A stretch of DNA of 64,000 bases from Ostreococcus lucimarinus (lineage: Eukaryota): NCBI GenBank assembly GCA_000092065.1, contig CP000588.1. One strand, given 5' to 3'. Both the position numbers and the translations under genes were made by a program. Shown piece after piece: positions 3,204-56,540 of the stretch; the stretch's first letter is position 1; each line of letters starts with the position of its first letter. Under the pieces are notes generated by a model. That model saw only the letters and a program-made list of their open reading frames with translations. It was not told the DNA's origin and searched no databases.

Positions 3204-3354
3204 GCGCGCCGTAATCTATTCGCCTCGCCGCCGCGCGTCGTCAGTCGTCGCGCCGCGTTCGAACCTCCATCGCGTTCGAGCCTCCGCTCGCGCGTCGCCG
3301 TCCGTTCGGCCGCGCGCGGACGACGACGACGGCACCGTTCGCGTCGTCGGACGC

Positions 3355-3356
3355 GT

Positions 3357-3411
<55 letters not shown>
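3355..3411. repeat. (GTC)n/(GAC)n microsatellite of about 19 units with one interruption. It lies in the divergent spacer between the CHCH gene and the HA-repeat gene.
   Basis: Direct reading of gtcgtcgtcgccgtcgtcgtc... Confidence 0.95.
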
Positions 3412-3746
3412 CTTCGCATCGCGCGTCGTCGCGTCGTCTCGCGCACCCGTATCCGCGCCTGCGCGCCCGATCGAGCGTCGTTCGCCCGCGCCGCGCTCTT
3501 CGACGCGCCCATGGCCGTCGCGTCGCCGTCTCGCGCCGTCGCGCGCGCGCGCCGCGGTGGCGCCGCGCGCCCGAGATCGAGACTGTGCGTCACACACGGA
3601 CTGAGAATGAAACGAGACTGCGTATCACACACGGACGACGGGATAAGGTCGGACGGTCGTCGCGCGCGCGCGCGCACACGGCGCCGCGGCCTCGGCGCCG
3701 AGCACGGCGCGAGCGATGACGAACGAACGCGCGCGAACGTGAGGAC

Positions 3747-5744
3747 ATGGTGGCGACGGCGCGGGCGACGGCGCGGGCGATAAGGACGCGCGATGGCACG
3801 CGATGGCACGCGAGGGGACGCGCGCGGAGGCGCGCGGACGCGCGACGCGGGACGCGCGCGAGAGGGACGTCGCGCGAGGACGCGGACGTGGACGTGAGCG
3901 GAGACGCGAGCGCGCGCGCGGAGGCGAGGGAAGACGACGAAGCGATTCGAGAGGAACGGCTGACGCCCGAGGATGAACTCTTGGCGAAGATTGAGGCGAG
4001 ACGAGAGGCGATGTTTCGAAGGAGCGAACGGACGAGGGCGACGAACGCTGGGCGCGATGAAGACGGAGTGGATTCGACGATCGATCGGGAGGAGACGCGA
4101 CGGGAGGACGAGCGGGAGGCGACGACGTCTGGGCGAAGACGAGACGAGTCGCCGTCGCGTCGGCGGCGAGTCGCGTCGGCGGCGGAGGATCCGTCGGCGG
4201 TGAGATCGAATGAGAAGCGAATCGAGGGCGATAGCGTCGGTGGTAGAGCTCGTCGAGAGGACACAGAGTTAGTCTGGGTGCTCGAACGTCCGGGTGAGGG
4301 CTGGGGAGAGCAGATTTTGCCAACCATCAAAGCGGAGCGCCGCGCGGTGGAGCGCCCGGCGCCGAGAAGGGCGCTGAGCTCTAGCGAGGAGTTTTTGATA
4401 CGCGAGATCGGCTTGAGTTCGGACGAAGTCGTGGCGGCTTTGAGTGCGGCCGCGGCGTGGCGCACGACGAAGAAGGGCCGAGCGTTGGTAGATAAGCGAC
4501 GCATGCGCCTCGTTCAGCAAAACGTCCTCCCGTGCGCGCAGACGATGTTCAATTTCGGCGCGTCGAAAGAGGATATGGCGCAGATTGTGCGAGATTATCC
4601 CATCGTCTTATCCCTCGACACTTCAACGGCATGGAATATGGATTTTGTGGAGTACGTCGTTCGGCAGAAAACCGAAAGCGGGGGCACGAAGGGTCGCATT
4701 CGAACGAAGGCGTACACAGGACGTCGCCCTACTGTCAAATCCATCTACAGACCCGAAAGAGTTTCCGATCACATGACTGAGTGGATCAGTCAGCAGCGTA
4801 GCGATCGTGACGAAGGTTTACTCAATCAAGAGCAGTTGTACTTACTCGACGCTATCGGATTCGACGCTGATAGATACGTCACGCAAGACATGTTGTTGAA
4901 ACGAAAAGGTAGAAAGGTTTGGGAGAAGTGGTTCGAAGAGCTCATCACTTTTCAGCAGCGCACCGGGCTGACGAATCCACCTTACGAAGAGGGTGTGACC
5001 ACAGGTCTCGGCGCTTGGCTGGAAGAGCAGCGGGAGTTGTACCGCATCGGCGAATTAGTCGATAAGCGAGAGGAGCGCTTGCGCGCGCAGGGCATCGCTT
5101 TTGACTCGCTCGAAGCGCTCGAGGAAGTCAAGAGGTTGAACTCGTTCGTTCGCGATACGACCATCGAACCTGTCGAGAACATACTTGCAAACACGCAGTT
5201 CACGCAGCTTGCTTTAGAACTCCGAGCTTTCCTCAACGAGAATGGGGAATACGCGGAGCCCAACGTCAATTCACCGCTCGGCGTGTGGGTCATCAAGACG
5301 CGCGCCAAAGTGCGAGACGGCACGATTCGCGACGAAGACATGCAGGCTTTAGAGCAACTCAACCTCGATATGGTCTACATCCCGGAAAGTTGGGTTGCGA
5401 TGTTAAACGTTTACGCGGACATGCGTGCGAGGCGCTCGAATTCCCTCGGCGTGGACATCATGAGAGTGAAAGCTTGGCAACGCGAACAGCTCGACCTCAT
5501 GAGGCGCAACGATGGCTCACTCACGCAGGCGCAGGTCAATCGTCTGCGCCACGTAGCCGCGATCGACAACATCGCTGGCTTCGCGTCAAACGCAGTACGC
5601 AGCGCGCGCGAAGAGCGTGCGAGAGAGTTTGCCGAGTTTGAGGCGCGCGTCGCCGCACGCAAGGCACGCTTGGAAGCGCTCGAAAAAGTCAAGCTGTCCA
5701 TTGACGAAGAACAAGACGAAGAACACGAAACGGACAATACTTAG
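3747..5744 (+). CDS. Protein with an R/E-rich N-terminal extension, mTERF-like motifs and C-terminal helicase-associated (HA, PF03457-like) repeats
   Basis: mTERF-like units LIREIGLSSDEVVAAL...NFGASKEDMAQIVRDYPIVLSLD. Three HA-like units with the W..F..L..F....G...P...LG.W...QR pattern (WEKWFEELITFQQRTGLTNPPYEEG, LGAWLEEQRELYRIGEL, WVIKTRAKVRDG). ATG at 3747. TGTAA at 5761, 17 nt after the stop. Confidence 0.5.
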   Translation: MVATARATARAIRTRDGTRWHARGRARRRADARRGTRARGTSREDADVDVSGDASARAEAREDDEAIREERLTPEDELLAKIEARREAMFRRSERTRATNAGRDEDGVDSTIDREETRREDEREATTSGRRRDESPSRRRRVASAAEDPSAVRSNEKRIEGDSVGGRARREDTELVWVLERPGEGWGEQILPTIKAERRAVERPAPRRALSSSEEFLIREIGLSSDEVVAALSAAAAWRTTKKGRALVDKRRMRLVQQNVLPCAQTMFNFGASKEDMAQIVRDYPIVLSLDTSTAWNMDFVEYVVRQKTESGGTKGRIRTKAYTGRRPTVKSIYRPERVSDHMTEWISQQRSDRDEGLLNQEQLYLLDAIGFDADRYVTQDMLLKRKGRKVWEKWFEELITFQQRTGLTNPPYEEGVTTGLGAWLEEQRELYRIGELVDKREERLRAQGIAFDSLEALEEVKRLNSFVRDTTIEPVENILANTQFTQLALELRAFLNENGEYAEPNVNSPLGVWVIKTRAKVRDGTIRDEDMQALEQLNLDMVYIPESWVAMLNVYADMRARRSNSLGVDIMRVKAWQREQLDLMRRNDGSLTQAQVNRLRHVAAIDNIAGFASNAVRSAREERAREFAEFEARVAARKARLEALEKVKLSIDEEQDEEHETDNT

Positions 5745-6897: not shown

Positions 6898-8030
6898 TTA
6901 ATACGGGCACGCCTTCGGAAGCTTGGTCTTGGCATTGCGGCCGCTCATGTCAAACTTCTTGTTCGCGCTTCCACCCATGACCATGAGGTCGCCTTGGTAC
7001 TTGCGCAAGGCGCGCTGCGCTCGACGGTGCACCAAGGAAATTTGGGTTGGCAACGTCGGGTAGTCTCTGCGAGTGATTCCACCGCCACTACCACGACAAA
7101 CGCCGTCGCTTGAAACTTGCATGCCGGCGTGTCGAGCGTTGGCGCGAACAGAATCGCGACTGTCGCTCGGACGGTGATTTTGCTTGTAGTATCGTCGAAA
7201 CTCTCGCGGACCGATGCGCTTTGCCTTTCCATCGGCGCCGATAATGATGAGTTCGTAGCCGTTGTCGGCCAGACGCACTGGACCATTCGTGAGTTCTTCC
7301 ATGGAAAATGCCGGGGCGTCATCGTCCATATCTTCATCGCTACTCTCCGCCTCTTGCGCGGCGCGTTCGATGTTCGCCAGCGCCTCTTGCGTTTCATCTT
7401 CGTCCATTTCTTCCCATTCACCATCGTACTCGTCCACGTCGTCGTCGTCGTCATCCTCTTCGCCTCGTCGTCGCGAGATTTCATCCAACAACGCCTCCGG
7501 AACCTCTTCTCCCCGCGCGATGTACGCGTCCACCTTGGCCAGCGTCTCCTTGTGCGCCTCGGCCCACTTCTCGAATCGCTGCGCCCGCAACACGCTTCTC
7601 GGAAGCTCATCCTTGCGCTTCAGATGCGATTTTCCCGCCTTAGCCGTCCCTCCTTCTGACCTCTTCTTACTCGCCGCCTCCTGCGCCGCCGCTTGCGTCA
7701 TCACGCGGTCGAACAAGTCCTTCCCGACCACCGGCAAACCGGCGACGCCGCGCTTCAAGTTGTACCGATGCCAATCCGATTTGTAATGCAGCTTCAGCGC
7801 ATCCATGGTATCGAACACCACGCCCTAACGTCGCGCGAACAAACGTGCATCACAGTCGTCAGTCACCGCGCGCGTCGACGGCGACCACCGCGCGTCTCTC
7901 GTCGTTCGACCCGTCGTCGTCGCGCGACCATCGCGCGAGGGCACGCGTTTCGTCTTTCCCTCGTCATCGCCGCCTCGTTTCGACGCACCGGCGCGGTGTG
8001 ACACGTCAACCCAGCCCCGGTATCACTCAT
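6898..8030 (-). CDS. REI1: REI1/ZNF622-type C2H2 zinc-finger factor for cytoplasmic 60S maturation. Two exons: join(8030..7989, 7824..6898).
   Basis: LHYKSDWHRYNLKR and REFRRYYKQN are REI1/ZNF622 signatures. The ORF start is GTG, preceded by TAG. Upstream there is an acceptor TTAG at 7825, a branch GACTGACG (+ coordinates 7857-7864) and a donor GTGCGTCG (+ coordinates 7981-7988). Exon 1 is ATG..MSDTGAGLTCHTAP (42 nt), which supplies the missing zinc-finger residues. Confidence 0.7.
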
Positions 8031-8283
8031 CTCGCGCTTCGCTGGCGCTCGCTCGCCTCGATCGCGCTCGGCGCGACGCGAAGTGTCGCCAAATCCCCGC
8101 CGCCGCCGCCGCGAGCGATGGACGCGCTCGAGAGACGTCTTTCGACGCCGCACATCGCGACGACGGGGCGCATCGCGCGCGCGAAGGCGAAGGCGAACGA
8201 AACGCGAACGAAACGCGACGACGCGACGACGCGACGACGCGTGACACGCGAGACGGCAGGCGGACGCGCGACGACACGCCGTC

Positions 8284-11787: not shown

Positions 11788-11848
11788 AGTAAACATAAAG
11801 CGCGTAAGTGTCTAAAATAATACCAACAACATTCTAATGGCGAATCAC

Positions 11849-12882: not shown

Positions 12883-13486
12883 TTACATGCCCTGAGACGC
12901 CAAGTAGTCGCCGAACTGCTCGACGTGCGCGCTGACTTGTCTCGTCTCCAAGTTATCGCCGTGAATGCCGATCACGAACGCCGTTTTGGTCTTTTTGATC
13001 ACGACGCCGTGCTGCGCGCCGCGCTTGCCGCGCACGACGCCGTAGTCGTCGCCGCCGTTGAGAAAGACGTAGCGCGAGCCACCGATGGTGATGCCCTCGC
13101 TCGCGCGCTCGATGGGATCAGCGAATAACGCCATCAACGCCCGCGCTTCATCGGCGTTGAAACCTGGGAATTGCGCGCTTTGTCCCCAGACGTTTCCCGC
13201 GTGGTCCGCGATGCAGCACGCGCTCAGCGCCGCGGCGTCGCCGTCGGGGACGGCGATCACGCTCAGCGACTCGATCATGGCCTGCGATCGACGATATGAT
13301 CATCGCGCCCGTCATCGTCAGTCCCCGCGCGCGTCTTCGCGTCCGTCCGCGTCGTCATCATCGAGTCTCTTCCCACGCCGACGAGACGTTTCGTTCGTTC
13401 GTTCGTTCGTTCGTTCGTTCGTTCGTTCGTTCGTTCGCGCCGTCGCCGTCGTCGTCTCGTCTCGCACGCACGTCCCAGCCCGACAT
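12883..13486 (-). CDS. PFN: Profilin. Two exons: join(13486..13472, 13281..12883), with a 15-nt start micro-exon.
   Basis: Exon 2 carries profilin signatures (AAALSACCIADHAGNVWGQSAQFP...GGSRYVFLNGG...KTAFVIGIHGD...QFGDYLASQGM). Exon 1 is ATGTCGGGCTGGGAC (MSGWD), followed by donor GTGCGTG. The 190-bp intron (13282-13471) has branch GACTGACG 38 nt before its CAG acceptor. The (GTTC)11 repeat lies inside this intron. Confidence 0.7.
13393..13436. repeat. (GTTC)11 microsatellite inside the profilin 5' intron and the profilin/TLC divergent spacer
   Basis: Direct reading of tcgttcgttcgttc... Confidence 0.95.
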
Positions 13487-31333: not shown

Positions 31334-31521
31334 CGCGTCGCCGGGCGCGCCGCGGGGACGTCGAGCGACGCGACCGTCGAGCGACGGCGCGTCCGTCACC
31401 GCGCGCGGGCGTCGCGTAACGAACGCGCGGGCGCGCCGAACCCCGGGCCGGGCCGGGCGGTCGGCGCGCGCGTCGGCGCGTCGTCTTTTTCGCGCGCGGG
31501 CGTCTCCGTGATCTCGTCTCG

Positions 31522-33183
31522 ATGGCTTCGCGGGACGCGCTATACGAGGGCCGATCGATCGCGCGCGGCGATCGATCGATCGATCGATCGCGCGGTCGGT
31601 CGCCGCGCGCGGTTGACCGACCGACGCGCGCGGTGGGCCGCGAGAGCGCGACGCGACGTCGCGCGATGACGGCGGACGACCGAGGGTGGTGCGCGTACCC
31701 GAGCGAAGCGAAACGCGATCCCGCGAGCACGCTCGATCTGCCGCGCGGCGAGGACGACGGGAACGCCGCGTCGAGGGCGTCGAGAGTCGCGATGACGCGA
31801 GTCAAGGTGCCGAGCGCGTGCTGCGAGTTCGACGAGGACGCGACGGATGGGGGCGAAGCGGACGAGGATGGGTTGATCGAGGTGGACGTGACGATCGACG
31901 TCGATCGGGGGATGATCGAAGGCGTGCGCGAGTCGACGAGCACGAGGACGAGGACGGTGGGGGAGGAGGAGACGGCGGATTACGCGGAGAGCGACGAGGA
32001 CGAGGACGGCCGTCGCGGGCTTCGAGTGGCGATGGGCGGGAGGATGTGCTTACCGACGTTCGTGGACATACACACACATATAGATAAGGCACACACGTGT
32101 GAGAGGAGCCGAAATTTAAACGGCACCCTCGCTGGCGCGGACGCCGCGTGCGCGAACGATTTCCAACACTGGACGCTCGAAGACGCCAAGCGGCGCATGG
32201 GCTTTGCGATTCAGTGCGCGTACGCGTACGGGACCTCCGCCATGCGCACGCACTTGATGTCGGGTGAGGAGAGACAGAGCAAAATCGCCTGGGAAGCGTT
32301 CGGGAAGTTACGCGAGGAATGGAGAGGGAAAGTTGAGTTGCAAGGCGTGTCACTCTCGGTGTTGAGCTTTTTCCGCGACGAGACCAAGGCGCGCGCGCTG
32401 GCTCGCATGGTGAAATCTTATGGAGGTATACTTGGCGCCGCCGTGTCGTGTAGCGATGCAGGTGGTACACCACTGGATGTCCACACGACGTGCGGTGCCG
32501 ATATGCCCAAGTTATTGGACGTCATTTTCTCTCTGGCGAAGGAATACAATTTGGATGTCGACTTTCATTGCGACGAGAACGGCAATGAATCCTCCAAAGG
32601 CTTGCTCCACATTTCTGAGGCCGTCATTCGAAACAATTTCAAAGGATCTGTGGTGTGCGGTCACTGCTGCAGTCTCGCAGTTCAGCCAAACGAACAGGCA
32701 AAGCGCATCATCGACGCCGCCCGCGAAGCGGGCGTCACCGTTGTTTCGCTTCCAATCGTTAACCAATGGCTTCAAAATCGTGATCCAACGAACGAAGCGA
32801 CGCCAACGCGGCGAGGCGTTACTCGGGTGAAGGAGCTTGCCCGAGCTGGCGTGCCGGTGTGCCTTTCGAGTGATAATACGCGAGATCAATTTTTTCAATA
32901 CGGTGACTGTGATATGCTCGAGGTATTTCGATCGAGCGTTTGCATCGCGCATCTCGATCGACCTTTTGGATCGTGGCCGTTGGCTTTAGCTGCGAACCCA
33001 TCGCGCGCGATGCGACTTGGCGAAAAGTCGGGAATGATTGCTCCAGGAGCGAAGGCAAACTTTGTCTTGTTTCGCGCTAGGAATTACAGCGAGCTGTTTT
33101 CTAGATCGCAACATGATCGAGTCGTCATTCGTGATGGTGTCCGCATCGCTACTGCTTTACCAGATTATGAAGAGCTAGACTAA
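31522..33183 (+). CDS. Bacterial-type cytosine deaminase-like amidohydrolase (CodA family) with a long low-complexity N-terminal extension
   Basis: CLPTFVDIHTHIDKAHT is the CodA metal-binding HxH motif, followed by downstream amidohydrolase motifs (FHCDE, HCCSL). The first roughly 170 aa are R/D/E-rich and unrelated. The true ATG is uncertain. TGTAA at 33237. Confidence 0.7.
   Translation: MASRDALYEGRSIARGDRSIDRSRGRSPRAVDRPTRAVGRESATRRRAMTADDRGWCAYPSEAKRDPASTLDLPRGEDDGNAASRASRVAMTRVKVPSACCEFDEDATDGGEADEDGLIEVDVTIDVDRGMIEGVRESTSTRTRTVGEEETADYAESDEDEDGRRGLRVAMGGRMCLPTFVDIHTHIDKAHTCERSRNLNGTLAGADAACANDFQHWTLEDAKRRMGFAIQCAYAYGTSAMRTHLMSGEERQSKIAWEAFGKLREEWRGKVELQGVSLSVLSFFRDETKARALARMVKSYGGILGAAVSCSDAGGTPLDVHTTCGADMPKLLDVIFSLAKEYNLDVDFHCDENGNESSKGLLHISEAVIRNNFKGSVVCGHCCSLAVQPNEQAKRIIDAAREAGVTVVSLPIVNQWLQNRDPTNEATPTRRGVTRVKELARAGVPVCLSSDNTRDQFFQYGDCDMLEVFRSSVCIAHLDRPFGSWPLALAANPSRAMRLGEKSGMIAPGAKANFVLFRARNYSELFSRSQHDRVVIRDGVRIATALPDYEELD
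31545..31583. repeat. (CGAT)5-6 palindromic microsatellite in the TauE/amidohydrolase divergent spacer
   Basis: Direct reading of gcgatcgatcgatcgatcgatcgcg. Confidence 0.9.
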
Positions 33184-35559: not shown

Positions 35560-35803
35560 CCAGTGCCGCGATTGAGACGCTTCAACAACTTGAGTGGCAA
35601 AATGTAGAACACGAGAATGCAGCACAGCGATAGCAATACGAAATCGACTGGCTTTAAGGCGTAGATGATAATATCATCATCGTACATGTGCCTTCTTCTC
35701 TTGCGCTTGTGCGAGCGCACACTCGATGTGCGCGTGCGAGTTTGTGGCTTCTTGGGGAGGTCGGTTACCGTGTAAAGTGAACGCCCTGACCGTTCTAATT
35801 AAA

Positions 35804-37543
35804 TTACAACGCCGCCTTCTTAGCTGCTTTTGCTTTTTGATTGTGATGCTTGTGTGTAAAATCTTTTGCAGTCAGTCCTCTCGTTTGTCGTCCGCCAGAC
35901 CCTCTTCCTCCGCGACCGGCACCCCCGTTTGCCCTGGGTTGTTCTTTGGCCGAAGCACTTGTCGACAATCCCCTTGGCGTGAAAGGTACCGCGCTTGTGC
36001 TCGGGGTGAATGCTGAATCGAACCGTGACTTATTTCCACCCGCACCGAGTCCTTCTATCTCGTTTCTTTTCGTTTTTTCTTGGGCCAGGGCGATCGTTGA
36101 CGCTTCCTCTGCGCTATGCGCGAAGATTTTCTCGGCGCCGGCTTTGTGGGAGTGATAGACTTTGCCGTCGGCCACATAGAAGACACGCTTCGATGCGTTT
36201 GCACGTTCTTTGCGACCGTCTCCATCTTCTAATTCGTCCGTACCGAGCGTGACGTTCGCTACTTGCACTGGGAGATCGTCGAATGAATCATCGTATTCAT
36301 CCTCGTATTCCAAATTGCGCGCTGCCTTCAGCACTCGCTTCTTATCTTCCACTGAAAGTTCGAGGTCAGCTTCCTTGTTCAATCTCTTGCCAACGGGTAT
36401 ACTGGGCTGAGGACGACTCCGCCAGGTCAACTTTGACGCGGGTGGCGGCCATCCCAGCTGTCTATCAAGCGACCGCAAATCAGGCGGAAGCGACTCCTCA
36501 AACAAATGCTGCACAATTGACTCAGCGTTGGGACCAAAATGGTCTACGCATGCCTTAAGAAACCCAATGCCGACATCGGGTAGGATGATTCTAACAGATT
36601 CAATCGTGTTCACGACCACTGGAGCCAGTCCTACGTACTTATCGCGCTCTGCATCCACGGGTTCTCCATCTCCTCCTCCTCCTCCTCCTCCTCCTCCTCC
36701 TCCATCTGCACTTCTCAGAAAGGAAATTGCCGCGCCTAAAGAACCTCTCACCGTATCTAAACTATCACTATCGCAAGTTGCCATGGACTGGAAGCTAGAA
36801 AGTACCATACTTCGGATCTTTTCGAGCGCACCTGTCAGATTCCCATCACGACGCAACCATTCTGCGGCTTCTGGATACACGGTGACGAGTGAAACAAGTG
36901 AAATAGCAACGTCGTGAAAGTATGACAGCGATTCACTCAACCCGTCTGGTGGGAGCTCGTTAGCTTCAGCCGCAGGAGTCACTCGCGCTGCCATATCTTT
37001 CAAGTTCTTTTCGATCATCAATCCAGTGCGCCCAAAATCGTCTTCGAGAGTCGGCAACAGTTTCACAGCATTTTCTAGCACTTCGTGCACTAGATCCCTG
37101 TTATCGCTTCCATAAATCACCGTCAAGTCAATCAATTTCGGTACGTCGATCAGGTTATGCTTTAAAACCGCCTGCCTCCGCTCTTCGAGAGTTAAGCAGC
37201 TTCGCTCTCGAGCGCCGTCATTCACCAGTCTGAGCATCGTGAGGAAGACCTTCCTTCCCAACTCGTCCTCCGTAACTGAAGTCGACGGTTCGGCCCCCCG
37301 ACCTCGAGTTTCGAATGGCCGCGTTTTAAACTGCAAGTACGTGTCCAGACTCCTCCCGAGCCCTCGTCCGTTTCTCTGCACGTGCGCCCAAAACGCTTCA
37401 CTCGTCTTTCGCAGCGCACTATCGAGGGCGTCCACTAGCGCTTGACACGCCTCCGTAGCGCGCTCGTCCAAAGGATCGTCGTCGCCGGGCAGATAGGAGA
37501 TGTACGTCACCGTCGCTGGCGCGACGCGTGACGCGCGTGACAT
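35804..37543 (-). CDS. CUE-domain protein, possibly ASCC2-like, with a poly-Gly tract
   Basis: IESVRIILPDVGIGFLKACVDHFGPNAESIVQHLFEESLP is a CUE domain. The ORF track 5' extension to 37957 is antisense to HGH1. The first plausible ATG is at 37543. Confidence 0.45.
   Translation of the reverse strand: MSRASRVAPATVTYISYLPGDDDPLDERATEACQALVDALDSALRKTSEAFWAHVQRNGRGLGRSLDTYLQFKTRPFETRGRGAEPSTSVTEDELGRKVFLTMLRLVNDGARERSCLTLEERRQAVLKHNLIDVPKLIDLTVIYGSDNRDLVHEVLENAVKLLPTLEDDFGRTGLMIEKNLKDMAARVTPAAEANELPPDGLSESLSYFHDVAISLVSLVTVYPEAAEWLRRDGNLTGALEKIRSMVLSSFQSMATCDSDSLDTVRGSLGAAISFLRSADGGGGGGGGGGGDGEPVDAERDKYVGLAPVVVNTIESVRIILPDVGIGFLKACVDHFGPNAESIVQHLFEESLPPDLRSLDRQLGWPPPASKLTWRSRPQPSIPVGKRLNKEADLELSVEDKKRVLKAARNLEYEDEYDDSFDDLPVQVANVTLGTDELEDGDGRKERANASKRVFYVADGKVYHSHKAGAEKIFAHSAEEASTIALAQEKTKRNEIEGLGAGGNKSRFDSAFTPSTSAVPFTPRGLSTSASAKEQPRANGGAGRGGRGSGGRQTRGLTAKDFTHKHHNQKAKAAKKAAL
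36671..36703. repeat. (TCC)11 microsatellite, equal to (GGA)11 on the coding strand. It encodes a Gly run inside the ASCC2-like gene.
   Basis: Direct reading of tcctcctcc... Confidence 0.95.
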
Positions 37544-37682
37544 CCCACGCGTCCGACGGCGCGCCTCGAAGTATCGACGGACGCGAGTGCGCGCTGTAGG
37601 CGCGCACGCGCTCGCGGGCGAAGGCGGCACAGTCAGACGTGCGCGCTGCGTCCCGTCGAGGACGACATCCGCGCTAGAATTC

Positions 37683-38732
37683 ATGGCCGACGAACTCGAC
37701 GAGGTGATCGGGTTTTTGTCCGATAAGAACCCGGCCGTGCGAGAGCAGGCGGCGCACATCATCCAAGGCTTGACTGGAACGGATGACGGCGCAAAGTTAC
37801 TGTGCGCTAAAGCCGACTCACTGGTGCCAAAACTGTTGCACGCGCTCGGCAAAGAAGGCGCAGAATCAAAGTATGCCGCGACAGCGCTGGTAAACTTGAC
37901 GCACGACCCGGAGGTGATCGTCAAGGCTGTGAACAAGGGTGTCGTGGAGCGAGCCATGGACGGGCTTCGCGATGGCGACGGTGCACCGGTAGACCTCTTG
38001 CTGTCTATTTTAGCGAACGTGACGACGGCGGAGAGCGGTGTACACGTGATAAGTCAAGAGGGTAAGCCACTAGAAGGATTTTACGTGTCAAAGTTGATCC
38101 AACTCTTGTCCACCGGAAAGCCGGAGGAAGACTACGACCATGCCGCGTCAGTCTTGACAAACATCTCGCGCGACCCGATCGGTCGACGAGTCTTCTTAGA
38201 TCCGAAGCGAGGATTGTTAGCATCAGTTGTTTCAATTATGAGTGAATCGAACGACCTCAGACGTGAGCGTGTCGCAGCGGCGTTGCGGAATTGCTGCATG
38301 GATGACATTCAGCGTAAAGCGCTTTTGGACTTTGTCAGCCCAGGTGCACAGGAGGCAGCAGGGGATGTCCTACGCGCGCTCCTTCGGCCGATCAGCGGGA
38401 AGCAGGTCGGAGCAGAATTATCTGATCATGTTCGTCAGGCCTGTGCGGAAGCGATCTACGCGTTGGCGAAAGACGAAGAAGGCCGGATGTGGCTTGGCAA
38501 GTTGGACGCTCCTCGGACTCTGCGAGACGGATACGAACTTGAGGAACACGCAGAAACTTGTGCTGCATTGGTTGCCGCCGGAGATTTGTTCCTGAAGCAC
38601 GGCATGGTGCCCGAAGACCTTCAAGAAGGCTTGAATCAGCCGCAAGCCGTCGAAGTGATTGACGATGACGAAGCCGTGGTCATGATGGGACCAGGCGTTG
38701 GTGGTGGTGGATTTATTAGTGGCGTGGATTGA
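37683..38732 (+). CDS. HGH1: HGH1 (FAM203/Brp16) ARM-repeat protein
   Basis: MADELDEVIGFLSDKNPAVREQAAHIIQGLTG matches the HGH1 N-terminus, with ARM-like repeats through the protein. ATG at 37683. Confidence 0.7.
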   Translation: MADELDEVIGFLSDKNPAVREQAAHIIQGLTGTDDGAKLLCAKADSLVPKLLHALGKEGAESKYAATALVNLTHDPEVIVKAVNKGVVERAMDGLRDGDGAPVDLLLSILANVTTAESGVHVISQEGKPLEGFYVSKLIQLLSTGKPEEDYDHAASVLTNISRDPIGRRVFLDPKRGLLASVVSIMSESNDLRRERVAAALRNCCMDDIQRKALLDFVSPGAQEAAGDVLRALLRPISGKQVGAELSDHVRQACAEAIYALAKDEEGRMWLGKLDAPRTLRDGYELEEHAETCAALVAAGDLFLKHGMVPEDLQEGLNQPQAVEVIDDDEAVVMMGPGVGGGGFISGVD

Positions 38733-39827
38733 TTTGTCAATTGAGTAAATCGTTCGCTCGCGTCGTTCGCAATTTTAAAGCGAGAATTCCGCGCAGATAA
38801 TAGTGTATTAAAATCATATCGTATTCGTTGAAGCTCGCGTGGGTTAGTGACAGTATTGTGCGCGCCCCGTTTCGTACGTTGCGATGTAAATAATTAAATC
38901 AACTGCATCAAAGATGACGGCTTGTCAAAGCTCACAATGAAGTGGACGCGTGCGGATCGCGTGCTCATTTAAACGTGGTGTCGCGAATATCGATTGTGTG
39001 ACGTTCGTGTGTTGTTTTGCATGCATCTAGCGCCTATCTAAGAGCGCACTCCTGGAGAGTATTTATTTAATAAATTAATTAATTTTGATCGTGACGTCGT
39101 TGTCGGCGTGTTTGTCTTGATTACTCAATAAAATTGCTCGCTTGGCCGTCCACTACATCGAGCGATCTGGACTGCCTGTTTGCGACACATGGATGTGCAA
39201 AACGGGTTACGGGTGAATTAATTTCAATTATTTTCTCCTTCTCGATAAAACACCGACAACGTCGTTGTCTATGGACGCTCTGGCCGGCCGTGCGCGAGCT
39301 CCATGCCTCTTGGATGCTCGTTGGTGCCGTACGTTTCGGAGTTTTGCGTCCCGGAAGCTTTGATTCGTTGCCACGCGTTACGTTGGCGAACGTTTGTATT
39401 AAATTTATTTATTACAAAGACGCACATTTCACTTTGTACGAAAATAACGAACGCGCTCGAGTAATTACCACGTAAGAACAATGAAAATGACCTTTCGGAC
39501 GTCTCGTGCGCTTACGCTGCGTTTACATCGACTTCGTCGTCTCACGAGGGCGTGTTTTGCCGTCATTCGCGATTATTCGATAATTAATTACTTTTGTAAT
39601 CTGTTGCATCGCGAAGCCAGAAACGATCAGTTCAATATCCCTTAACGAGCATCCCGCGAGATCGCAGTCGTGGTTGTGCGCGCGCTTACGAGTGATGGGT
39701 GATTAATGTCTGTATGCACACTTGAATTGAAAAGAACTACATAGCAACCAAGACACTGAGACAGGTTCGCAGGCACTTCTTCCTCAACGAACAATATTTC
39801 TCAATACATTATAGCCACACCATGAAC

Positions 39828-41064: not shown

Positions 41065-41741
41065 CTCGAGAGACCTTTGGCGCGAAAAGTCGAGCGCGCA
41101 AGATGCGATCTCGCGCCGAACTCCGAAGCTTTACGAGCGCGGACGGCGCGTGGAGGGCGTGCGGACGTGCGAAGGGTGGCTATGGACTCCCTCGAGGACG
41201 GACGTTCGAACGAATCGAAGTCGTCGTGTGCGGCGGCGGTAATCTTTCGGAACGCCTCGTGACGTCTTCGCGGATACGAGCGCCGCCGCTGCGAATCCGA
41301 ACCCGCCGCGGGCGCGACGAAAGGCCAGACGTCGTCGGGGGACTCGCGACGAGTCGTGATTCGATCGCGTCGCACGTTTTTTATCGATCATCCGCGTCAA
41401 AGGTGAAAGATCTATCATGGCTTTGAATACGGTAAAATTGACATCGGGGGAGATGCAGAGCCTCCCGCGGACATATCGACCTAGCCCTAGATCGCCAAGT
41501 TTCGGCGCTGAGCCCTGCGCAATCAGTCGTTGTGACGCCTCACACGGACCCATATCGACTTTCTCGACTTTCTCGACTTCTACGACGCCGACCGTCGCGC
41601 GCGATTTCGCGAAAGGGCTTATGCGATCTAACGTGGATGCGGTTCAGATGATGAGATCGCTGGAGTGGTGGATTAATGGATGAATGAATTGAAATGAGTC
41701 CTAGTATATATAAAAGCGTCGCGACGGGCGTCGGTGAGCTT

Positions 41742-43768: not shown

Positions 43769-46579
43769 CTATAACAATCCTCGCAAGCTGATAACGTTAC
43801 GAGTGCTTGGCGATAGCATCGACTCGCACCGCCCGTTTGTATTCCCAGTTTCTGGAATCCCGTGCGAAACAGCTCGCATCTTCTTTTCCGTGCTCGTATT
43901 CGCTCGATAGTTTTGCCATGACGTTCCATTACTGTCTAGTAGCGTGCCTCCCCACGCAGCGTCTTCCGTAGCCGTAGATAGAAGCTCAGCCACGCGTGTC
44001 TTCACTTGCGCTTTGCCGCTGCGGTGATCCAACTCTATCGGGCCTTTACTCTCGCGCTTCAGCGTGGCGATCCCCTGAAAAAAGAGAAACTTTTGCTCCG
44101 CATCAACGCTGCTGATGAGTGAGATACTATGCATCGAACCGGGGAACCCGACTCGCATATCGCGGAGATCTTCCTCAACGAGCACCCCAGCTTCGAAGAG
44201 TTGTCTGACAAACCGTTTCAGTACGACGCAGTGCTCCTTGAAGCGCTCGTATTCCAGAAGTCCCGCACGGTTAGTGATGAATGTGTTAAACTTCTGCTGA
44301 AGATCGAGTTGACCAGTTTTCTTTTGCAACTTTTGGAACCTCACTGGTCCGAGGTTTCTGAGCAGCCTTCGACGCTGGGCTTCGTTTCGAGCAGCGAGCA
44401 TGCGCACTCCCAAATCCTCGATGGCGAACATGATAACTCGTCGAAAGCTCAGTGGGCTACAGCCAATACTGTACTTGCCCATGCTTTTGATCATATTTAC
44501 GTACACGCTACAAAGCTGCGGATTCAATAGCATCTCTTCAAATCCAGAACAGAAAATGTGAGCCAGTACGTTTTCATGGTACACGCCGTACATGACCATC
44601 TGTTTCACCAGATTTTGAAAGATGTGTTCGTCCACCTTCAAGTTTGCAAAAGTTGAACCCATCATTACCACCTGGTTCTCATTCCACTTTGACAAAGACT
44701 CTTTCATGAGTTCATCAACGTTGGTGCGGTGTTTGTTCACCGGATGACCAAATGCTCCACTTCCACATACGTACAAATTCTCGCTCCCTCGAGCAACGAC
44801 AAACGTGGATGATTTGGATGCGTAAACCTGCTCAGCTTTAACTTCATACATCGGATGTCGCTCGATCTCTTCTATTTCCGACTTCTTCAAGGCGAGACGA
44901 TCGGTGACTGATAACGCTGGCTGTAACTTTTTCGGCGTAGTCGCCGTGGCGATTGACCCGTCGCCGAGTTGACCAAAGTCGTTTGATCCACAGACAAAAA
45001 CGTCGCCAAGCGTTGTCAACATGACGGTGTGATTATCACCAGCTCCGATTTGAACGATGAAAACGTTCACCATAGTAGACACCAGTGTCACCAAACTTCG
45101 ATCTACCGTGTCGCTCAATCCCAACTGTCCATCGGAACCGCGTCCGCAGACGTATACTCGACCCTTCTCTGTTAGCATTACTGTGTGCTCCTCTCCCCCG
45201 ACGACCTGCACGACCTTGTGACGAACCTTTTCCAACGCCACACAGCTTTCGCTTACGTCTTTGAGAGCCGTCATCTCGTTGATGAACCTCTGTTCAAGCT
45301 GGACCGAGTCGAGATGGATTTCTTCCACGTCGACTCGTTCCGGAACACCGCCGACGAACTCGTCGTGCCCCATGCGTCTGGGAATGAAAATATTCGAAAA
45401 GTCACCGCATCCGAGCTGACCACAACTATTTGAGCCAAATCCATAAACGTAACCCGAATCGGTCACTACGAGTGTGTGATTGCTACCGCAAGCCACTGAA
45501 GACACGTTCATAAGAGTGACAGATTCCACGAGCTTTGGCTTGGCGTAGTTAACCCCATCTCCGTGACCGAGTTGACCGCAATCTCCAACGCCGAAAGTGT
45601 AAACTTGCCCTGAGCCCGTTGTTATGACCGTGTGTGCTGAGCCCGCGGCACAAGACACCACCTTCGTCGTGGCGTTGGTCATCCAGTACATCCACTTTGG
45701 TGTGTTGTGAATCCGATTCAAACCGCTCTCACCGTGGCCAGTGCAACCGCCTACATCTTCCCCCCACGTCAAGCACTCCTGTCCTGATGTCACCGCTACC
45801 GAGTATCGGCCGCCTGCGGCGACATCTACAGCCTTCGCTCCGTCAATGACGTCGAGCGCCACCGGAACGTCCTGAGACGTCGTCGTTCGAAGACCGAGTT
45901 GCGATGACTCATCGGATCCCATAACAAGTATCCGTCCGTCGTGATCAGTATACGTAGGAGCGATATGTTCCAGCGCCTCTGGGTTGGATTCAAGAAGAAT
46001 AAGCGCATGATCGTCCCCACCAGATATTTTCTTCACCCGCGACCCCAATGGTAGACTGAACACAACTGGCTTGACGAACCGGTGCAAATGAGACGGCACT
46101 CCACGTAAGTTCTTCAATCGAGTCTCCATGTAAGCCACTCTCTCTTCGGACGTCGCATTGGCCTTACTCCCGCGATTACGAAATAAAATATTCATATATC
46201 CACCGACCGCAGGTTCACCGTCCGCGTCTACATCGTCGTCGGCTGCGTCGGTTGTTGTCAACGTTAAAGACGTCGCTGGTTCGTCCAAACGCGAGGCGCC
46301 TTTCTCCGCGAGCATCGCAACCGCAAGTTCTTCTTTCTCCACTTCGCGATCGGATCGTAATATTTCTACATCTTCTTCGTCATCGGACTCGCTCCATCTT
46401 AGCTCATCCACATCATCCGGGTTGCGGAACGCCCCCGTCTCGCGCTCGCGCCACTCGACGCGATGAATCGTCTCTACAAACTTTTGCTTTACTCGGTCCT
46501 CTTCGGTGTAACGAAGGACTGGAATACCCCAAGCGTTGATATTGACATCATCCCCATTGTTTGCGCCCGAGGGTTCCAT
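43769..46579 (-). CDS. RCC1-repeat protein with additional N-terminal and C-terminal regions
   Basis: Repeated GQLGHGD, CGQLGCGD, GSDGQLGLSD and GSNDFGQLGDG blades. ATG at 46579 confirmed. Confidence 0.7.
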   Translation of the reverse strand: MEPSGANNGDDVNINAWGIPVLRYTEEDRVKQKFVETIHRVEWRERETGAFRNPDDVDELRWSESDDEEDVEILRSDREVEKEELAVAMLAEKGASRLDEPATSLTLTTTDAADDDVDADGEPAVGGYMNILFRNRGSKANATSEERVAYMETRLKNLRGVPSHLHRFVKPVVFSLPLGSRVKKISGGDDHALILLESNPEALEHIAPTYTDHDGRILVMGSDESSQLGLRTTTSQDVPVALDVIDGAKAVDVAAGGRYSVAVTSGQECLTWGEDVGGCTGHGESGLNRIHNTPKWMYWMTNATTKVVSCAAGSAHTVITTGSGQVYTFGVGDCGQLGHGDGVNYAKPKLVESVTLMNVSSVACGSNHTLVVTDSGYVYGFGSNSCGQLGCGDFSNIFIPRRMGHDEFVGGVPERVDVEEIHLDSVQLEQRFINEMTALKDVSESCVALEKVRHKVVQVVGGEEHTVMLTEKGRVYVCGRGSDGQLGLSDTVDRSLVTLVSTMVNVFIVQIGAGDNHTVMLTTLGDVFVCGSNDFGQLGDGSIATATTPKKLQPALSVTDRLALKKSEIEEIERHPMYEVKAEQVYASKSSTFVVARGSENLYVCGSGAFGHPVNKHRTNVDELMKESLSKWNENQVVMMGSTFANLKVDEHIFQNLVKQMVMYGVYHENVLAHIFCSGFEEMLLNPQLCSVYVNMIKSMGKYSIGCSPLSFRRVIMFAIEDLGVRMLAARNEAQRRRLLRNLGPVRFQKLQKKTGQLDLQQKFNTFITNRAGLLEYERFKEHCVVLKRFVRQLFEAGVLVEEDLRDMRVGFPGSMHSISLISSVDAEQKFLFFQGIATLKRESKGPIELDHRSGKAQVKTRVAELLSTATEDAAWGGTLLDSNGTSWQNYRANTSTEKKMRAVSHGIPETGNTNGRCESMLSPSTRNVISLRGLL

Positions 46580-46840
46580 CGCGTGACGCTCGCGTGCGGG
46601 GGCACGCGAGCGTTCGCGCCGGTTCGTTGGATGTCCCGCGGCTCTTCGAGTCGCGTACGAATCCCTCGCGCGCCGTCTACGACGGCGTCGTCAATCGTCG
46701 AACGCACGCGCGGTCGGCGATAACACTCCCTACGCGTCGTTTCCCGCCCCGCGGTGGGTGGACGGTGGACGGCCTTCGTGCGCACTGCCGCGTAATGCCG
46801 CGCCCGACGCGACGGCAAGTCCCCCTGTCCCTCGACGCCC

Positions 46841-47140
46841 TCGACGGGGTCGATCGACGGGGTCGATCGATACGATCGACCGAATGCTTCGACGCGATCG
46901 ACGCGATCGATCGATCGGATACGATCGACGTCGATCGACGTGATCGATCGATCGAATGTTTGACGCGATCGACGTCGATCGATGCGATCGATCGATCGGA
47001 TACGATCGACGTCGAACGACGTGATCGATCGATCGAATGCTTCGACGGGATCGACGTCGATCGACGCGATCGATGCGATCGAACGATCGAACGCGATCGA
47101 ACGATCGGATGCGATCGACGGGATCGACCGAACTCGATCG
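46841..47140. repeat. Minisatellite of about 2.3 copies of an 81-82-bp unit built from TCGATCGA/CGATCG palindromes. It lies in the 770-bp divergent spacer between RCC1 and iPGAM.
   Basis: cggatacgatcgacgtcga(t/a)cgacgtgatcgatcgatcgaatg(t/c)tt... recurs at 46910 and 46991, with partial copies on both flanks. Confidence 0.85.
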
Positions 47141-47350
47141 ATCGACGGCGCACCGTTCCCCTCGCGACGTTCGCGAAAGCGCGGCCGTCCAACCTCAGAG
47201 CGTCGATCGATCGACCTCGCGATCCGGACAAAGGAAATCGGGTGTTTGCCCTAGCCCTCCGAAAAGTACCGAACGCGCCGCCCTCTCTCACGCGCGGGGC
47301 GCGTGGCGTCGCACTTCATCGCGCGCGCTCGAAGACGACGGGGAACGATC

Positions 47351-48994
47351 ATGGAGCTTCATCCGCACCCGACAATCCCGCAAAAGAAGCCCGTCTTGGT
47401 GTGCATCCTCGACGGTTGGGGAGAGAATGAATACGAGGACGAGCACAACGCCGTGCATGTGGCCAAGACGCCGACGATGGACGCGCTCAAGGCGAAAGGT
47501 CAATCGTTCTATCGCACCGTCCAGGCGCACGGTACGGCCGTTGGCCTGCCCACCGATGCGGACATGGGGAACTCCGAAGTCGGGCACAACGCCCTGGGCG
47601 CGGGGAAGGTGATCGCGCAGGGAGCGTCCCTGGTTGACATTGCGCTTGAGACAAAGAACATGTTTAGCGACGCCGGGTGGGGGTACATCAAGCCCGCGTT
47701 CGCGAACAATACGCTTCACGTGATTGGATTATTGAGTGATGGCGGTGTGCACTCGCGCACGGATCAAATATTTGGCTTGATGCGAGGCGCGCTCGCGGAT
47801 GGGTGCAAAAAGTTGCGCCTGCACGTGCTCACCGACGGACGAGACGTTCCGGATGGTACATCGCACGAGTACATGGCAAAACTCGTCGCTGAACTCGACT
47901 CGTACACCGCGCAGGGATGTGATGCGAAGGTTGCTTCCGGTGGTGGACGCATGGCGGTGACCATGGATCGTTACGAAGCCGACTGGGGTATGGTTGAGCG
48001 GGGCTGGCGCGCGCACGTTTTGGGTGACGCCCCGCATAAGTTCAAGTGCCCGAAAGAAGCTTTGACGGAGCTTAAGAAGGATGGAGCCACCGACCAGTAC
48101 GTTGCACCGTTTGTCATCGTTGGCGATGATGGCGAAGCGGTCGGTACGATCCAAGACGACGATGCCGTCGTCATCTGCAACTTCCGCGCAGATCGCGTTG
48201 TCGAAATTTCCAAGGCTTTCGAGTATGCAGACTTTGACTCGTTCGATCGCGTGCGATTTCCCAAGACAAAGTTTGTGGGACTGATGCAGTACGATGGCGA
48301 CTTGAAGCTACCGGCGAACTATCTCGTTCCACCCCCGCTCATCGAGCGGACTTCTGGCGAATGGCTCGCGAAGAATGGATTGAAAACCTTCGCGTGCTCC
48401 GAAACTCAAAAGTTTGGTCATGTCACCTTCTTTTGGAACGGTAACCGCTCTGGGTACTTCAACGAAAATCTTGAAACATATGTCGAGATTCCGAGCGACA
48501 ATGTGCCTTTTAACCAAGCGCCGTTGATGAAGGCTCGCGAAATCACCGCAGCCGGGAAGGAGGCGTTGCTCTCTGGGAAGTACGACGTCGTTCGGATCAA
48601 CTACGCTAACCCTGATATGGTTGGTCACACCGGTGACATGGCGGCCACCGTTGCGGCTTGCGAAGAGTGCGATGCGTGCGTGAAGGAACTTCTCGACCTC
48701 GTGGAAGAGTTGGGTGGTATGTTCCTGGTCACCGCCGATCACGGCAACGCCGACGACATGGTGCAGCGCGACAAAAAGGGTGGCGCGTTGAAGGACGACA
48801 GCGGCGCACTCTTGGCTCTCACTTCGCACACTCTCGCTCCAGTTCCGGTCGCAATCGGTGGTCCGGCGTTGCCCACGGGTGTCAAGTTTCGCGACGATCT
48901 CCCAAAGGCTGGTCTCGCCAACGTCACGGCGACGTACATCAACCTCATGGGATACGAGGCGCCGGCTGAGATGGAGCCCAGTCTCATCGCGTGA
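47351..48994 (+). CDS. PGM: 2,3-bisphosphoglycerate-independent phosphoglycerate mutase (iPGAM)
   Basis: KKPVLVCILDGWGENEYEDEHNAV...TPTMDAL...VGHNALGAG... is colinear with plant iPGM. ATG at 47351. Confidence 0.9.
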   Translation: MELHPHPTIPQKKPVLVCILDGWGENEYEDEHNAVHVAKTPTMDALKAKGQSFYRTVQAHGTAVGLPTDADMGNSEVGHNALGAGKVIAQGASLVDIALETKNMFSDAGWGYIKPAFANNTLHVIGLLSDGGVHSRTDQIFGLMRGALADGCKKLRLHVLTDGRDVPDGTSHEYMAKLVAELDSYTAQGCDAKVASGGGRMAVTMDRYEADWGMVERGWRAHVLGDAPHKFKCPKEALTELKKDGATDQYVAPFVIVGDDGEAVGTIQDDDAVVICNFRADRVVEISKAFEYADFDSFDRVRFPKTKFVGLMQYDGDLKLPANYLVPPPLIERTSGEWLAKNGLKTFACSETQKFGHVTFFWNGNRSGYFNENLETYVEIPSDNVPFNQAPLMKAREITAAGKEALLSGKYDVVRINYANPDMVGHTGDMAATVAACEECDACVKELLDLVEELGGMFLVTADHGNADDMVQRDKKGGALKDDSGALLALTSHTLAPVPVAIGGPALPTGVKFRDDLPKAGLANVTATYINLMGYEAPAEMEPSLIA

Positions 48995-49262
48995 TCGCGA
49001 CCCGCGGAGCTCTTTGCGACGCGTCTCCACGCGCACTCAAGGTGCTTAATCTCGAATCACCATTAATCAGTCCTCATGTCAACATCAGATTTTTTCTTTA
49101 GACGCACCGTCCCGGCGACGCGTCTGTCCGCACTCTGCGATGCGCGTCGACGGCGCTTCCTCGGCGTCCCTCGCGCGTGCGTCCGTCCCTCGCGTCGCGC
49201 GTGCGAGCACCGCTCGTTCGACAAGGCACCGCGCTCGTTCACATCGCGCGCGCGTCGTCGCC

Positions 49263-56430: not shown

Positions 56431-56540
56431 ACCGTCGGCGAGTCACGAACCGTCGACGAGTCACGAACCGTCGACGAGTCACGAACCGTCGACGAGTCAC
56501 GAACCGTCGGCGAGTCACGAACCGTCGGCGAGTCGGCGCG
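56431..56540. repeat. About 5.5 tandem copies of an 18-bp unit GAGTCACGAACCGTCGRC in the carB 5' region
   Basis: Direct reading. It produces the spurious RRRFVT and SHEPST repeats in ORF-track entries on both strands. Confidence 0.9.

Follow-up and report, generated by a model that had tools for sequence, protein, structure and literature searches.

Ostreococcus lucimarinus is a very compact green alga, and the window analysed here (a stretch of 64,000 nucleotides of its nuclear DNA) raises the question of why the 5' spacer shared by two divergent genes is occupied by a tandem array rich in the palindrome CGATCG, where this array came from, and whether it does anything for the two genes that it separates. 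One of them encodes an RCC1-repeat protein (hereafter RCC1-like) and the other the cofactor-independent phosphoglycerate mutase (iPGAM), in the following arrangement:

43769–46579, minus strand: left neighbour, gene for the RCC1-repeat (RLD-type) protein; an open reading frame of 936 aa, with Pfam RCC1/RCC1_2/WD40_RLD in its orthologues.
46580–47350, no strand: divergent 5' spacer common to the RCC1-like and iPGAM genes, 771 bp.
46841–47145, no strand: the array, 305 bp of higher-order tandem repeat with about 3.1–3.7 units.
47351–48994, plus strand: right neighbour, iPGAM gene; 547 aa, Pfam PF01676 and PF06415.

The array lies 262 bp from the ATG of the RCC1-like gene and 206 bp from that of iPGAM. 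The iPGAM protein clusters at 90% with XP_001419150.1 of O. lucimarinus CCE9901 and shares 91% identity with that of O. tauri, and 605 blocks of a public assembly collection index the identical 547-aa sequence. O. tauri and other Ostreococcus lineages keep the same succession of genes, namely GrpE, Zip, RCC1-like (minus strand), iPGAM (plus strand), GST, and TRAPP. Our measurement of the spacer (771 bp, 46580–47350) agrees with the 770 bp of the first-pass annotation, but the 150–350 bp that it gave for spacers elsewhere does not hold, as divergent spacers measure 207–1940 bp (median about 470 bp), on a gene map that is ORF-based and approximate and in which the longest spacers may conceal unannotated genes. 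Two long ORFs run across the array, one on the plus strand (46561–47430) and one on the minus strand (46677–47291); both were rejected as coding sequence and judged to be repeat-induced, being made of the translation of the repeat, and the minus-strand one is judged so also because it terminates at 46677 and fails by about 100 bp to reach the start codon of the RCC1-like gene. As a separate observation on the iPGAM side, four Logan contigs (L001–L004) are transcript-like and begin 3–5 nt 5' of the iPGAM ATG, in a sample biased by a query with one extra codon.

The tandem array first noted at 46841–47140 is real, and we place it at 46841–47145 with a best period of 81 bp. It has the top TRF score of the window (312, at 46849–47100, with period 81, 3.1 copies, and 81% matches), with overlapping TRF rows of periods 37, 45, 54, and 4 (63% matches for period 4), and its self-identity is maximal, at 0.55, for a lag of 81 bp. 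The units, together with two shorter sequences that matter below, are:

46829–46894, no strand: left edge unit, degenerate; includes a perfect 13-bp repeat (x2.3) at 46841–46870.
46895–46975, no strand: central unit 1, 81 bp; 96% identity to unit 2 over 67 nt.
46930–46944, no strand: exact 15-mer GTCGATCGACGTGAT, common to the array and to a non-repeated patch of the sister lineage L007.
46976–47057, no strand: central unit 2, 82 bp.
47058–47147, no strand: right edge unit, degenerate; 64% identity to unit 1, with CGATCGAAC-type sub-repeats of 8–10 bp.
47202–47215, no strand: a single GTCGATCGATCGAC outside the array, 57 bp downstream of it.

The 96% identity of the central units refers to the stretches 46895–46961 and 46976–47042, and that of the edge units is about 64%; the array is homogenised centrally and decays at both edges, which is the usual picture. 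To call it built entirely of palindromes was too strong, since CGATCG accounts for only 50% of its bases (64% for TCGA plus GATC). Even so, it holds 28 copies of CGATCG, against 18.0 ± 2.4 and a maximum of 26 in dinucleotide shuffles of the array itself, as well as 13 of TCGATCGA and four of GACGTC. Successive GATC are mostly spaced by 4, 9, or 10 bp, and pure (CGAT) runs do not exceed 3.5 units.

Within the species the array is a constant feature. It was found in 12 O. lucimarinus contigs from independent metagenome assemblies (a 681-kb JGI contig and others from TARA and several coastal series), of which nine are fully resolved and three carry scaffold gaps of N in or beside it. All nine resolved contigs have an array of exactly the length seen in the window, which disposes of the suspicion that it could be an assembly artefact or specific to one strain. 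When copy number is compared between strains, array length is thus invariant over the window and the nine resolved haplotypes, and wild O. lucimarinus is fixed for the array. The window does differ from all resolved wild haplotypes in being without 11 bp at 46826, and it has G at 46860 and 46862 where the wild haplotypes have C/A and C, respectively; these two bases produce the perfect 13-bp duplication, so that the x2.3 repeat at 46841–46870 belongs to the window haplotype only. Diversity was compared over 13 O. lucimarinus haplotypes, as follows:

Array: 11 segregating sites in 305 positions, pi 0.82%.
Array, CGATCG core positions: 3 segregating sites in 154, pi 0.62%.
Array, linker positions: 8 segregating sites in 151, pi 1.02%.
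Left flanking spacer, 46580–46825: 3 segregating sites in 246, pi 0.36%.
Right flanking spacer, 47146–47350: 3 segregating sites in 205, pi 0.45%.
iPGAM four-fold sites: 9 segregating sites in 282, pi 0.71%.
RCC1-like four-fold sites: 2 segregating sites in 175, pi 0.18%.

No purifying selection is detectable on the array as a whole, because its pi is close to that of the iPGAM four-fold sites and higher than that of the flanking spacer on both sides; its rate of evolution is roughly neutral or above. The smaller number of segregating sites in cores than in linkers (3 versus 8) goes in the direction that constraint would give but is not significant with these 13 haplotypes (one-sided binomial p ~0.11).

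The most informative evidence comes from the same spacer in other members of the genus. Nine orthologous RCC1-like/iPGAM spacers were compared, representing five deep Ostreococcus lineages that are about equidistant from each other (iPGAM identity of 87–93% between them); the comparison was made post hoc, with the pattern already seen, and the lineages are few. Spacer length goes from 252–260 bp in the O. tauri type, through about 320 bp (L010), 385 bp (L109), and 529–531 bp (L007/L104), to 756–789 bp in the array-bearing L105/L106/L111. Their contents can be described as follows:

O. lucimarinus (window): the array of 81-bp units.
L007/L104: a non-repeated patch some 100 bp long with 4–5 ATCGAT, two copies of the 12-bp palindrome TTCATCGATGAA included.
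L009 (closely related to L007/L104): of the four perfect ATCGAT sites that L007 and L104 retain, three are mutated.
L105/L106: an array of their own, (GTCGATCGATGAAG)x5.7–5.9 and then (TCGATCGATGAATCCGATCGA)x4.4 (14/21-bp units).
L111: about 17 copies of a different 19-bp unit with the same TCGATCGATGA core.
L109/L110: an array with the 21-bp unit GACGTWCGATTGTGGACATKT, of related CGATTG/CGATCG core.
L107 (O. tauri-like): CGATCGATCGATCGATG at the start codon.
O. tauri: one CGATCG, beside the ATG.
L010/L011 (same deep lineage as L109): none.

L111 is the sister of L105 within one deep lineage (iPGAM third-position identity 73.5%, flanking spacer 75–79%), and L105 and L106 differ by a 13-bp indel within the array. 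The motif TCGATCGA is present in six of the nine orthologous spacers, that is, in four of the five deep lineages, and outside those spacers it occurs twice in about 71 kb of flanking sequence, over which no further large tandem array was found. The spacers of the lineages that share the motif otherwise barely align. Every array contains (CGAT)2–4 runs, and the lineage of L007/L104/L009 has no slippage-prone run at all, only (CGAT)2, with TCGATCGA in the orthologous spacer and nowhere else in 28 kb. The patch of L007 is 64–74% identical to the array units (best E = 1e-6, in a small search) and has in common with them the 15-mer listed above, which marks the ancestral segment that was later amplified. 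Since TCGATCGA is rare in the flanks and in other 5' spacers, the TCGATCGA/ATCGAT element is tied to the RCC1-like/iPGAM locus and not to promoters generally; it is also dispensable, since O. tauri, with its single CGATCG, and L010, with none, keep the gene pair. The element has been re-amplified at least three or four times, giving arrays of differing design.

What we regard as secure is the origin of the array, namely that it is a promoter minisatellite derived by tandem duplication from an older TCGATCGA-rich patch of the RCC1-like/iPGAM bidirectional promoter. In the mechanism that we propose, a short self-complementary TCGATCGA/ATCGAT patch, older than the array and proper to the 5' region of this gene pair in the genus Ostreococcus, would have been duplicated in tandem via replication slippage or unequal exchange to give the array. 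As for its role, our tentative preference is for a redundant cluster of binding sites, used by a predicted dimeric factor and acting on the RCC1-like/iPGAM pair. The core palindrome is the most likely candidate for the site of such a dimeric DNA-binding protein, and the array would be a homotypic cluster with individually redundant sites, a redundancy under which both the number and the sequence of the sites could drift and undergo new amplification, as happens with variable repeats of other promoters. We favour this binding-site cluster because the core alone is retained across lineages whose spacers barely align, because it persists in the lineage devoid of a slippage-prone run, and because it is specific to this one spacer. 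Counted against it are the absence of TCGATCGA from O. tauri and L010, the sites lost in L009, the neutral level of diversity in the array, and the extended motif ATCGATGA, present in other lineages and missing from the O. lucimarinus array. The original suggestion of a binding array between divergent genes thus finds some support in a narrower, locus-specific form, in which the TCGATCGA/ATCGAT core appears tied to a single orthologous spacer in most lineages.

The main rival to the binding-site cluster is neutral persistence, a serious possibility even if we lean away from it. A self-complementary, slippage-prone (CGAT)n sequence, after being seeded at this position, would have persisted by continual expansion, decay, and re-expansion without any function, the 81-bp array being the present state of that cycle in O. 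lucimarinus. The genomic background is favourable to such a process, as this species is documented as an extreme outlier for CpG-rich tandem repeats (PMC3152781), and the repeat-rich divergent spacers of the window agree with that published abundance. Tandem repeats of all kinds occupy 13% of the divergent spacer sequence here (9.6% without the array), compared with 1.7% of coding sequence, while convergent spacers are free of them; because repeats of every kind concentrate in divergent spacers, a position in a divergent spacer is not specific to the CGATCG motif. The second (CGAT)n array that had been reported from another divergent spacer does exist, and is placed by us at the following coordinates:

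31552–31590, no strand: second site, in the TauE/amidohydrolase divergent spacer; CGATCGATCG (31552–31561) plus (CGAT)5.5 (31569–31590).

Its run is (CGAT)5.5 in the window and (CGAT)3.5 in all five resolved wild haplotypes, and several further indels are found in the same spacer, so that (CGAT)n at 31569–31590 is an ordinary length-polymorphic microsatellite. Neutrality also accords with an array diversity at or above the four-fold-site level, with SNPs that strike cores and linkers alike, with the (CGAT)2–4 runs in every array, and with an element that is absent from O. tauri and L010 and decayed in L009. Against it stands the lineage of L007, L104, and L009, where there is no run prone to slippage and yet TCGATCGA is kept in the spacer and nowhere else nearby. 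Moreover, from what is generally known of microsatellite life cycles, the persistence of the motif between spacers that can barely be aligned is long for a neutral repeat.

A structural or insulator role, by which the array would separate the two divergent promoters, either through a protein of the BEAF-32/DREF kind or through hairpins and cruciforms that absorb negative supercoiling, seems improbable to us. The array does sit between divergent genes, ATCGAT is the core of the Drosophila DRE TATCGATA, and a single strand of the array folds at -119 kcal/mol (z = -4.2 versus shuffles); the array also contains many imperfect inverted repeats. However, the longest perfect palindromes reach only 14–16 bp (CGATCGACGTCGATCG, of 16 bp and present twice, and CGATCGATCGATCG, of 14 bp), and stable cruciform extrusion usually requires longer perfect arms; with perfect palindromes of at most 16 bp we rejected cruciform extrusion as unlikely. 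The array has a single CGATA and lacks TATCGATA, array-free lineages keep the divergent pair with spacers of 250–390 bp, and the motif is missing from the other divergent spacers of the window.

Still less credible is that the array is a replication origin, a recombination hotspot, or the remnant of a mobile element. Repeats and palindromes are present at some replication origins and recombination hotspots, and in one metagenome contig (L108) the initial 80 bp of the array are fused to another locus. That contig joins the 5' end of RCC1 and this part of the array to the locus of a PTPLA gene, and is treated as chimeric because it starts with a Nextera-like sequencing adapter; it is also the single match of the stop-free translation of the array among 5.8 billion proteins, so that a dispersed family was rejected. 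A transposable element or MITE was rejected as well: the array-specific linkers have no other copies in the window, the position of the array is fixed in all haplotypes, and neither terminal repeats nor a target-site duplication were seen at it. Also against this reading, there is no GC-skew feature at the array, and synteny is conserved across the genus. A structured RNA gene can be discarded too, since nothing in the whole window matches an Rfam family at gathering thresholds. Finally, a scan of IMG/VR for three closely spaced TCGATCGA returned 22 stretches with no connection to Ostreococcus, and a viral link was rejected; among the IMG/VR sequences, a group of nine contigs with a (TCGA)n module represents a tailed phage (terminase match), and a giant-virus MAG carries (TCGATCGAGAATGAA)x3.

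In its broadest form, the reading of the first-pass annotation would make CGATCG, in arrays and as single sites, a promoter signal of the whole genome, that is, a general cis-element of Ostreococcus 5' regions. The window as a whole contains 130 CGATCG, with 83 ± 10 expected, most of the excess being due to the array and to the (CGAT)n site, and both of these CGATCG-rich loci lie in divergent spacers. The isolated copies said to recur in other 5' spacers do recur, although only at the rate predicted from composition: there are 31 in 13.2 kb of 5' spacers with the array excluded, a count that takes in seven from the (CGAT)n site, and Markov models of first and second order predict about 27; coding sequence has 69, with 53–55 expected. 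Outside the array CGATCG is thus found at about 1.1–1.3 times expectation. The greater raw density in 5' spacers (2.35 per kb, versus 1.43 per kb in coding sequence) is due to their composition; the GC of divergent spacers is 0.52–0.77, mostly at least 0.64, with 0.2–0.29 CpG per base in all but one, and convergent spacers have a GC of 0.32–0.45. With the two repeat loci excluded, TCGATCGATG with one mismatch has about 19 matches for 15 expected, and TCGATCGA is present in three of the 26 other 5' spacers. In an unbiased enrichment CGATCG was not among the top 6-mers of 5' spacers, which are led by the GACGAC, ACGACG, and AACGAA types. Within this window CGATCG does not behave as a general word of promoters; outside the two repeat loci its rates are those expected from composition, and the promoter code, already contradicted at this scale, can hardly be true of the genome.

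The single locus matters little by itself, promoter minisatellites being common and CpG-rich repeats an already known oddity of O. lucimarinus. The new part is comparative: most Ostreococcus lineages have a common palindromic core in one orthologous bidirectional promoter, and several times this core has been amplified anew, to arrays that differ in design. Searches of open-access text found no account of the array or of recurrent arrays at this orthologous spacer, and for CGATCG, ATCGAT, or TCGATCGA together with Ostreococcus or algae they gave primers, restriction sites, and a paper on the cyanobacterial HIP1. Because of the recurrent re-amplification, alleles of the same promoter with and without repeats exist naturally, and since O. 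tauri is transformable they provide a cheap experimental handle on the tuning of promoters by repeats in a minimal eukaryote; the same handle bears on which factor reads the TCGATCGA palindrome, for which we suggest the probe sequence TCGATCGACGTCGATCGA. A tempting but unsupported idea, that of CGATCG as a general promoter code, is also removed. Beyond the binding-site cluster proposed above, the TCGATCGA patch might be a genus-wide regulatory or boundary element specific to the RCC1-like/iPGAM pair, with sites so redundant individually that the cluster repeatedly decays and is rebuilt by tandem amplification, which we consider rather unlikely; the rebuilt arrays would take new unit lengths, i.e., 81, 14/21, and 19 bp, and possibly also the 21 bp of the unit with the related core. 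If true, the smallest free-living eukaryotes would possess a "self-renewing" array of binding sites and, with it, a natural series for how the number of promoter repeats tunes a glycolytic gene.

Several known systems resemble the array in part. In Drosophila, the DRE is bound by DREF, and BEAF-32 insulators are clusters of CGATA; here too a palindromic ATCGAT core is clustered between divergent genes of housekeeping type, but the array has one CGATA and no complete DRE, the organism is a green alga, and the motif is found at one locus and not genome-wide. The cyanobacterial HIP1 (GCGATCGC) is a dispersed single octamer, over-represented 15- to 300-fold genome-wide (PMC5861425). It has in common with the array a strikingly over-represented CGATCG palindrome, but GCGATCGC occurs 0 times in the array and 12 times in 64 kb, the genome is a eukaryotic nuclear one, and CGATCG outside the array is close to expectation. 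The sequence-level features that define DRE/BEAF-32 and HIP1 are therefore both lacking in the array. With a (CGAT)n microsatellite it shares a period-4 component, and the second site is indeed a pure, length-variable run, but the array is dominated by its 81-bp period and by sub-units of 9–10 bp.

A closer likeness is with promoter minisatellites and VNTRs, such as the variable tandem repeats in yeast promoters reportedly described by Vinces and colleagues in 2009. The array also consists of head-to-tail repeats in a 5' intergenic region, its units turn over fast between species, in at least one lineage copy number appears to vary (L105 versus L106), and its diversity is near neutral. It differs in that copy number is fixed in the sampled O. 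lucimarinus haplotypes, in the higher-order 81-bp unit made from 9–10-bp palindromic sub-units, and in the presence of repeats in the same orthologous spacer of several deeply diverged species. The repeats of CG, ACG, CCG, and units longer than 6 bp reported as unusually dense in O. lucimarinus (Mayer et al., 2010; PMC3152781) belong to the same genome and the same sequence class and, in the window, are concentrated in divergent 5' spacers, although CGAT/TCGA-type repeats are unmentioned there (ACGT, ATCG, and CGAT are absent from the text) and orthologous loci are not compared. The array is thus best filed with the variable tandem repeats of promoters, as an instance of the abundance of CpG-rich repeats reported for O. 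lucimarinus.

The spacers of the window differ in composition with the orientation of the genes that they separate. Most divergent 5' spacers are very rich in GC and CpG, with GC contents of up to 0.77 and typically 0.2-0.29 CpG per base (e.g., 7807-8283); those between convergent 3' ends have little length and a high AT content, their GC contents being 0.32-0.45 (e.g., 11788-11848). Tandem repeats cover 13% of the divergent spacer sequence vs. 1.7% of the coding sequence. The window has four more repeats of considerable size within 5' regions or close to them:

3342-3438, (CGT)33
3808-3925, 48-bp unit, 2.5 copies
13390-13437, perfect (TTCG)12
56431-56534, 18-bp unit ACCGTCGACGAGTCACGA, 5.8 copies, 97% identity

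Two long stretches of lower GC content (0.45-0.52), at 35560-37499 and 38733-39827, were left without a confident choice of ORF in the gene map, and the region around 35804-38732 holds rival long ORFs that overlap one another on the two strands.

Wild O. lucimarinus haplotypes, recovered as metagenome contigs, show how variable these spacers are. The (CGAT)5.5 repeat between the TauE and amidohydrolase genes (spacer 31334-31666) is shorter by two units in all five resolved wild haplotypes (from L098-L103), and at least five other indels occur in this spacer across six haplotypes; CpG-rich spacers of this kind are therefore indel hotspots. At the left edge of the CGATCG-rich array between the RCC1-like and iPGAM genes, every resolved wild haplotype carries 11 bp (TCGCCCTCTA-type) at 46826 that the window haplotype lacks, while positions 46860 and 46862 read G,G in the window haplotype vs. 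C/A,C in the wild ones, a difference that gives the former a perfect 13-bp repeat of 2.3 copies. It follows from both differences that the odd haplotype at this edge is the reference-like strain represented by the window, and not the wild ones.

Other variation was found around the same locus. Wild haplotype L008 has a 77-bp insertion (about 355-432 of the contig), located ten bases within the 3' end of the RCC1-like coding sequence (window 43781), which would alter the C-terminus of the predicted protein. It contains an internal inverted repeat, GCTGCGGC...GCCGCAGGC, has no GT...AG borders, and could represent an insertion polymorphism of a small hairpin or MITE-like kind. In another Ostreococcus lineage, whose iPGAM is 87% identical, a 21-bp unit, GACGTWCGATTGTGGACATKT, is repeated about nine times immediately next to the RCC1-like start codon (L109 2140-2330 and L110 1-130), the order of unit variants differing between the two contigs. 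In the metagenome contig L108 (1-1000), the 5' end of the RCC1-like gene, together with the array's first 80 bp, is fused to the region upstream of a PTPLA-domain gene. The contig starts with Nextera-like adapter sequence, and is probably a chimeric assembly, less probably a rearranged haplotype.

On the iPGAM side, four short transcript-like Logan contigs (L001-L004) span 47346-49096, one of them (L001) reaching 49548. All begin 3-5 nt upstream of the iPGAM ATG, hinting at a very short 5' leader, in a sample biased by its retrieval with a query carrying one extra codon; three of the four end 81-102 nt past the stop codon. About 100 bp upstream of the ATG, a GCCCTAG/CCCTAG block is shared by O. 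lucimarinus (window 47248-47254) and the related L007/L009 lineage (about 5908-5914 in L007), with GCCCTGAAA at a comparable position in O. tauri. Judging from this sequence comparison, the block may be a conserved piece of the core promoter.

CGATCG and related motifs also occur beyond this locus. Upstream of a sterol-methyltransferase-like gene, CGATCG is followed 20-30 bp on by ATCGAT in both species:

L006 500-600, O. tauri, CGATCG and ATCGAT pair
window 41350-41400, O. lucimarinus, CGATCG and ATCGAT pair

Here the motif pair may have a second, small site of conservation; chance may also explain it. Among viral sequences, a module of GTGGGTGGGTGGGT and (TCGA)4-5 is common to nine IMG/VR contigs (L115, L116, L119, L120, L122, L123, L129, L130, and L133); L116 encodes a terminase, which makes the group a tailed phage. 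A giant-virus MAG (L117, GC 36%) contains (TCGATCGAGAATGAA)x3, similar to the array unit of L105, a further Ostreococcus lineage.
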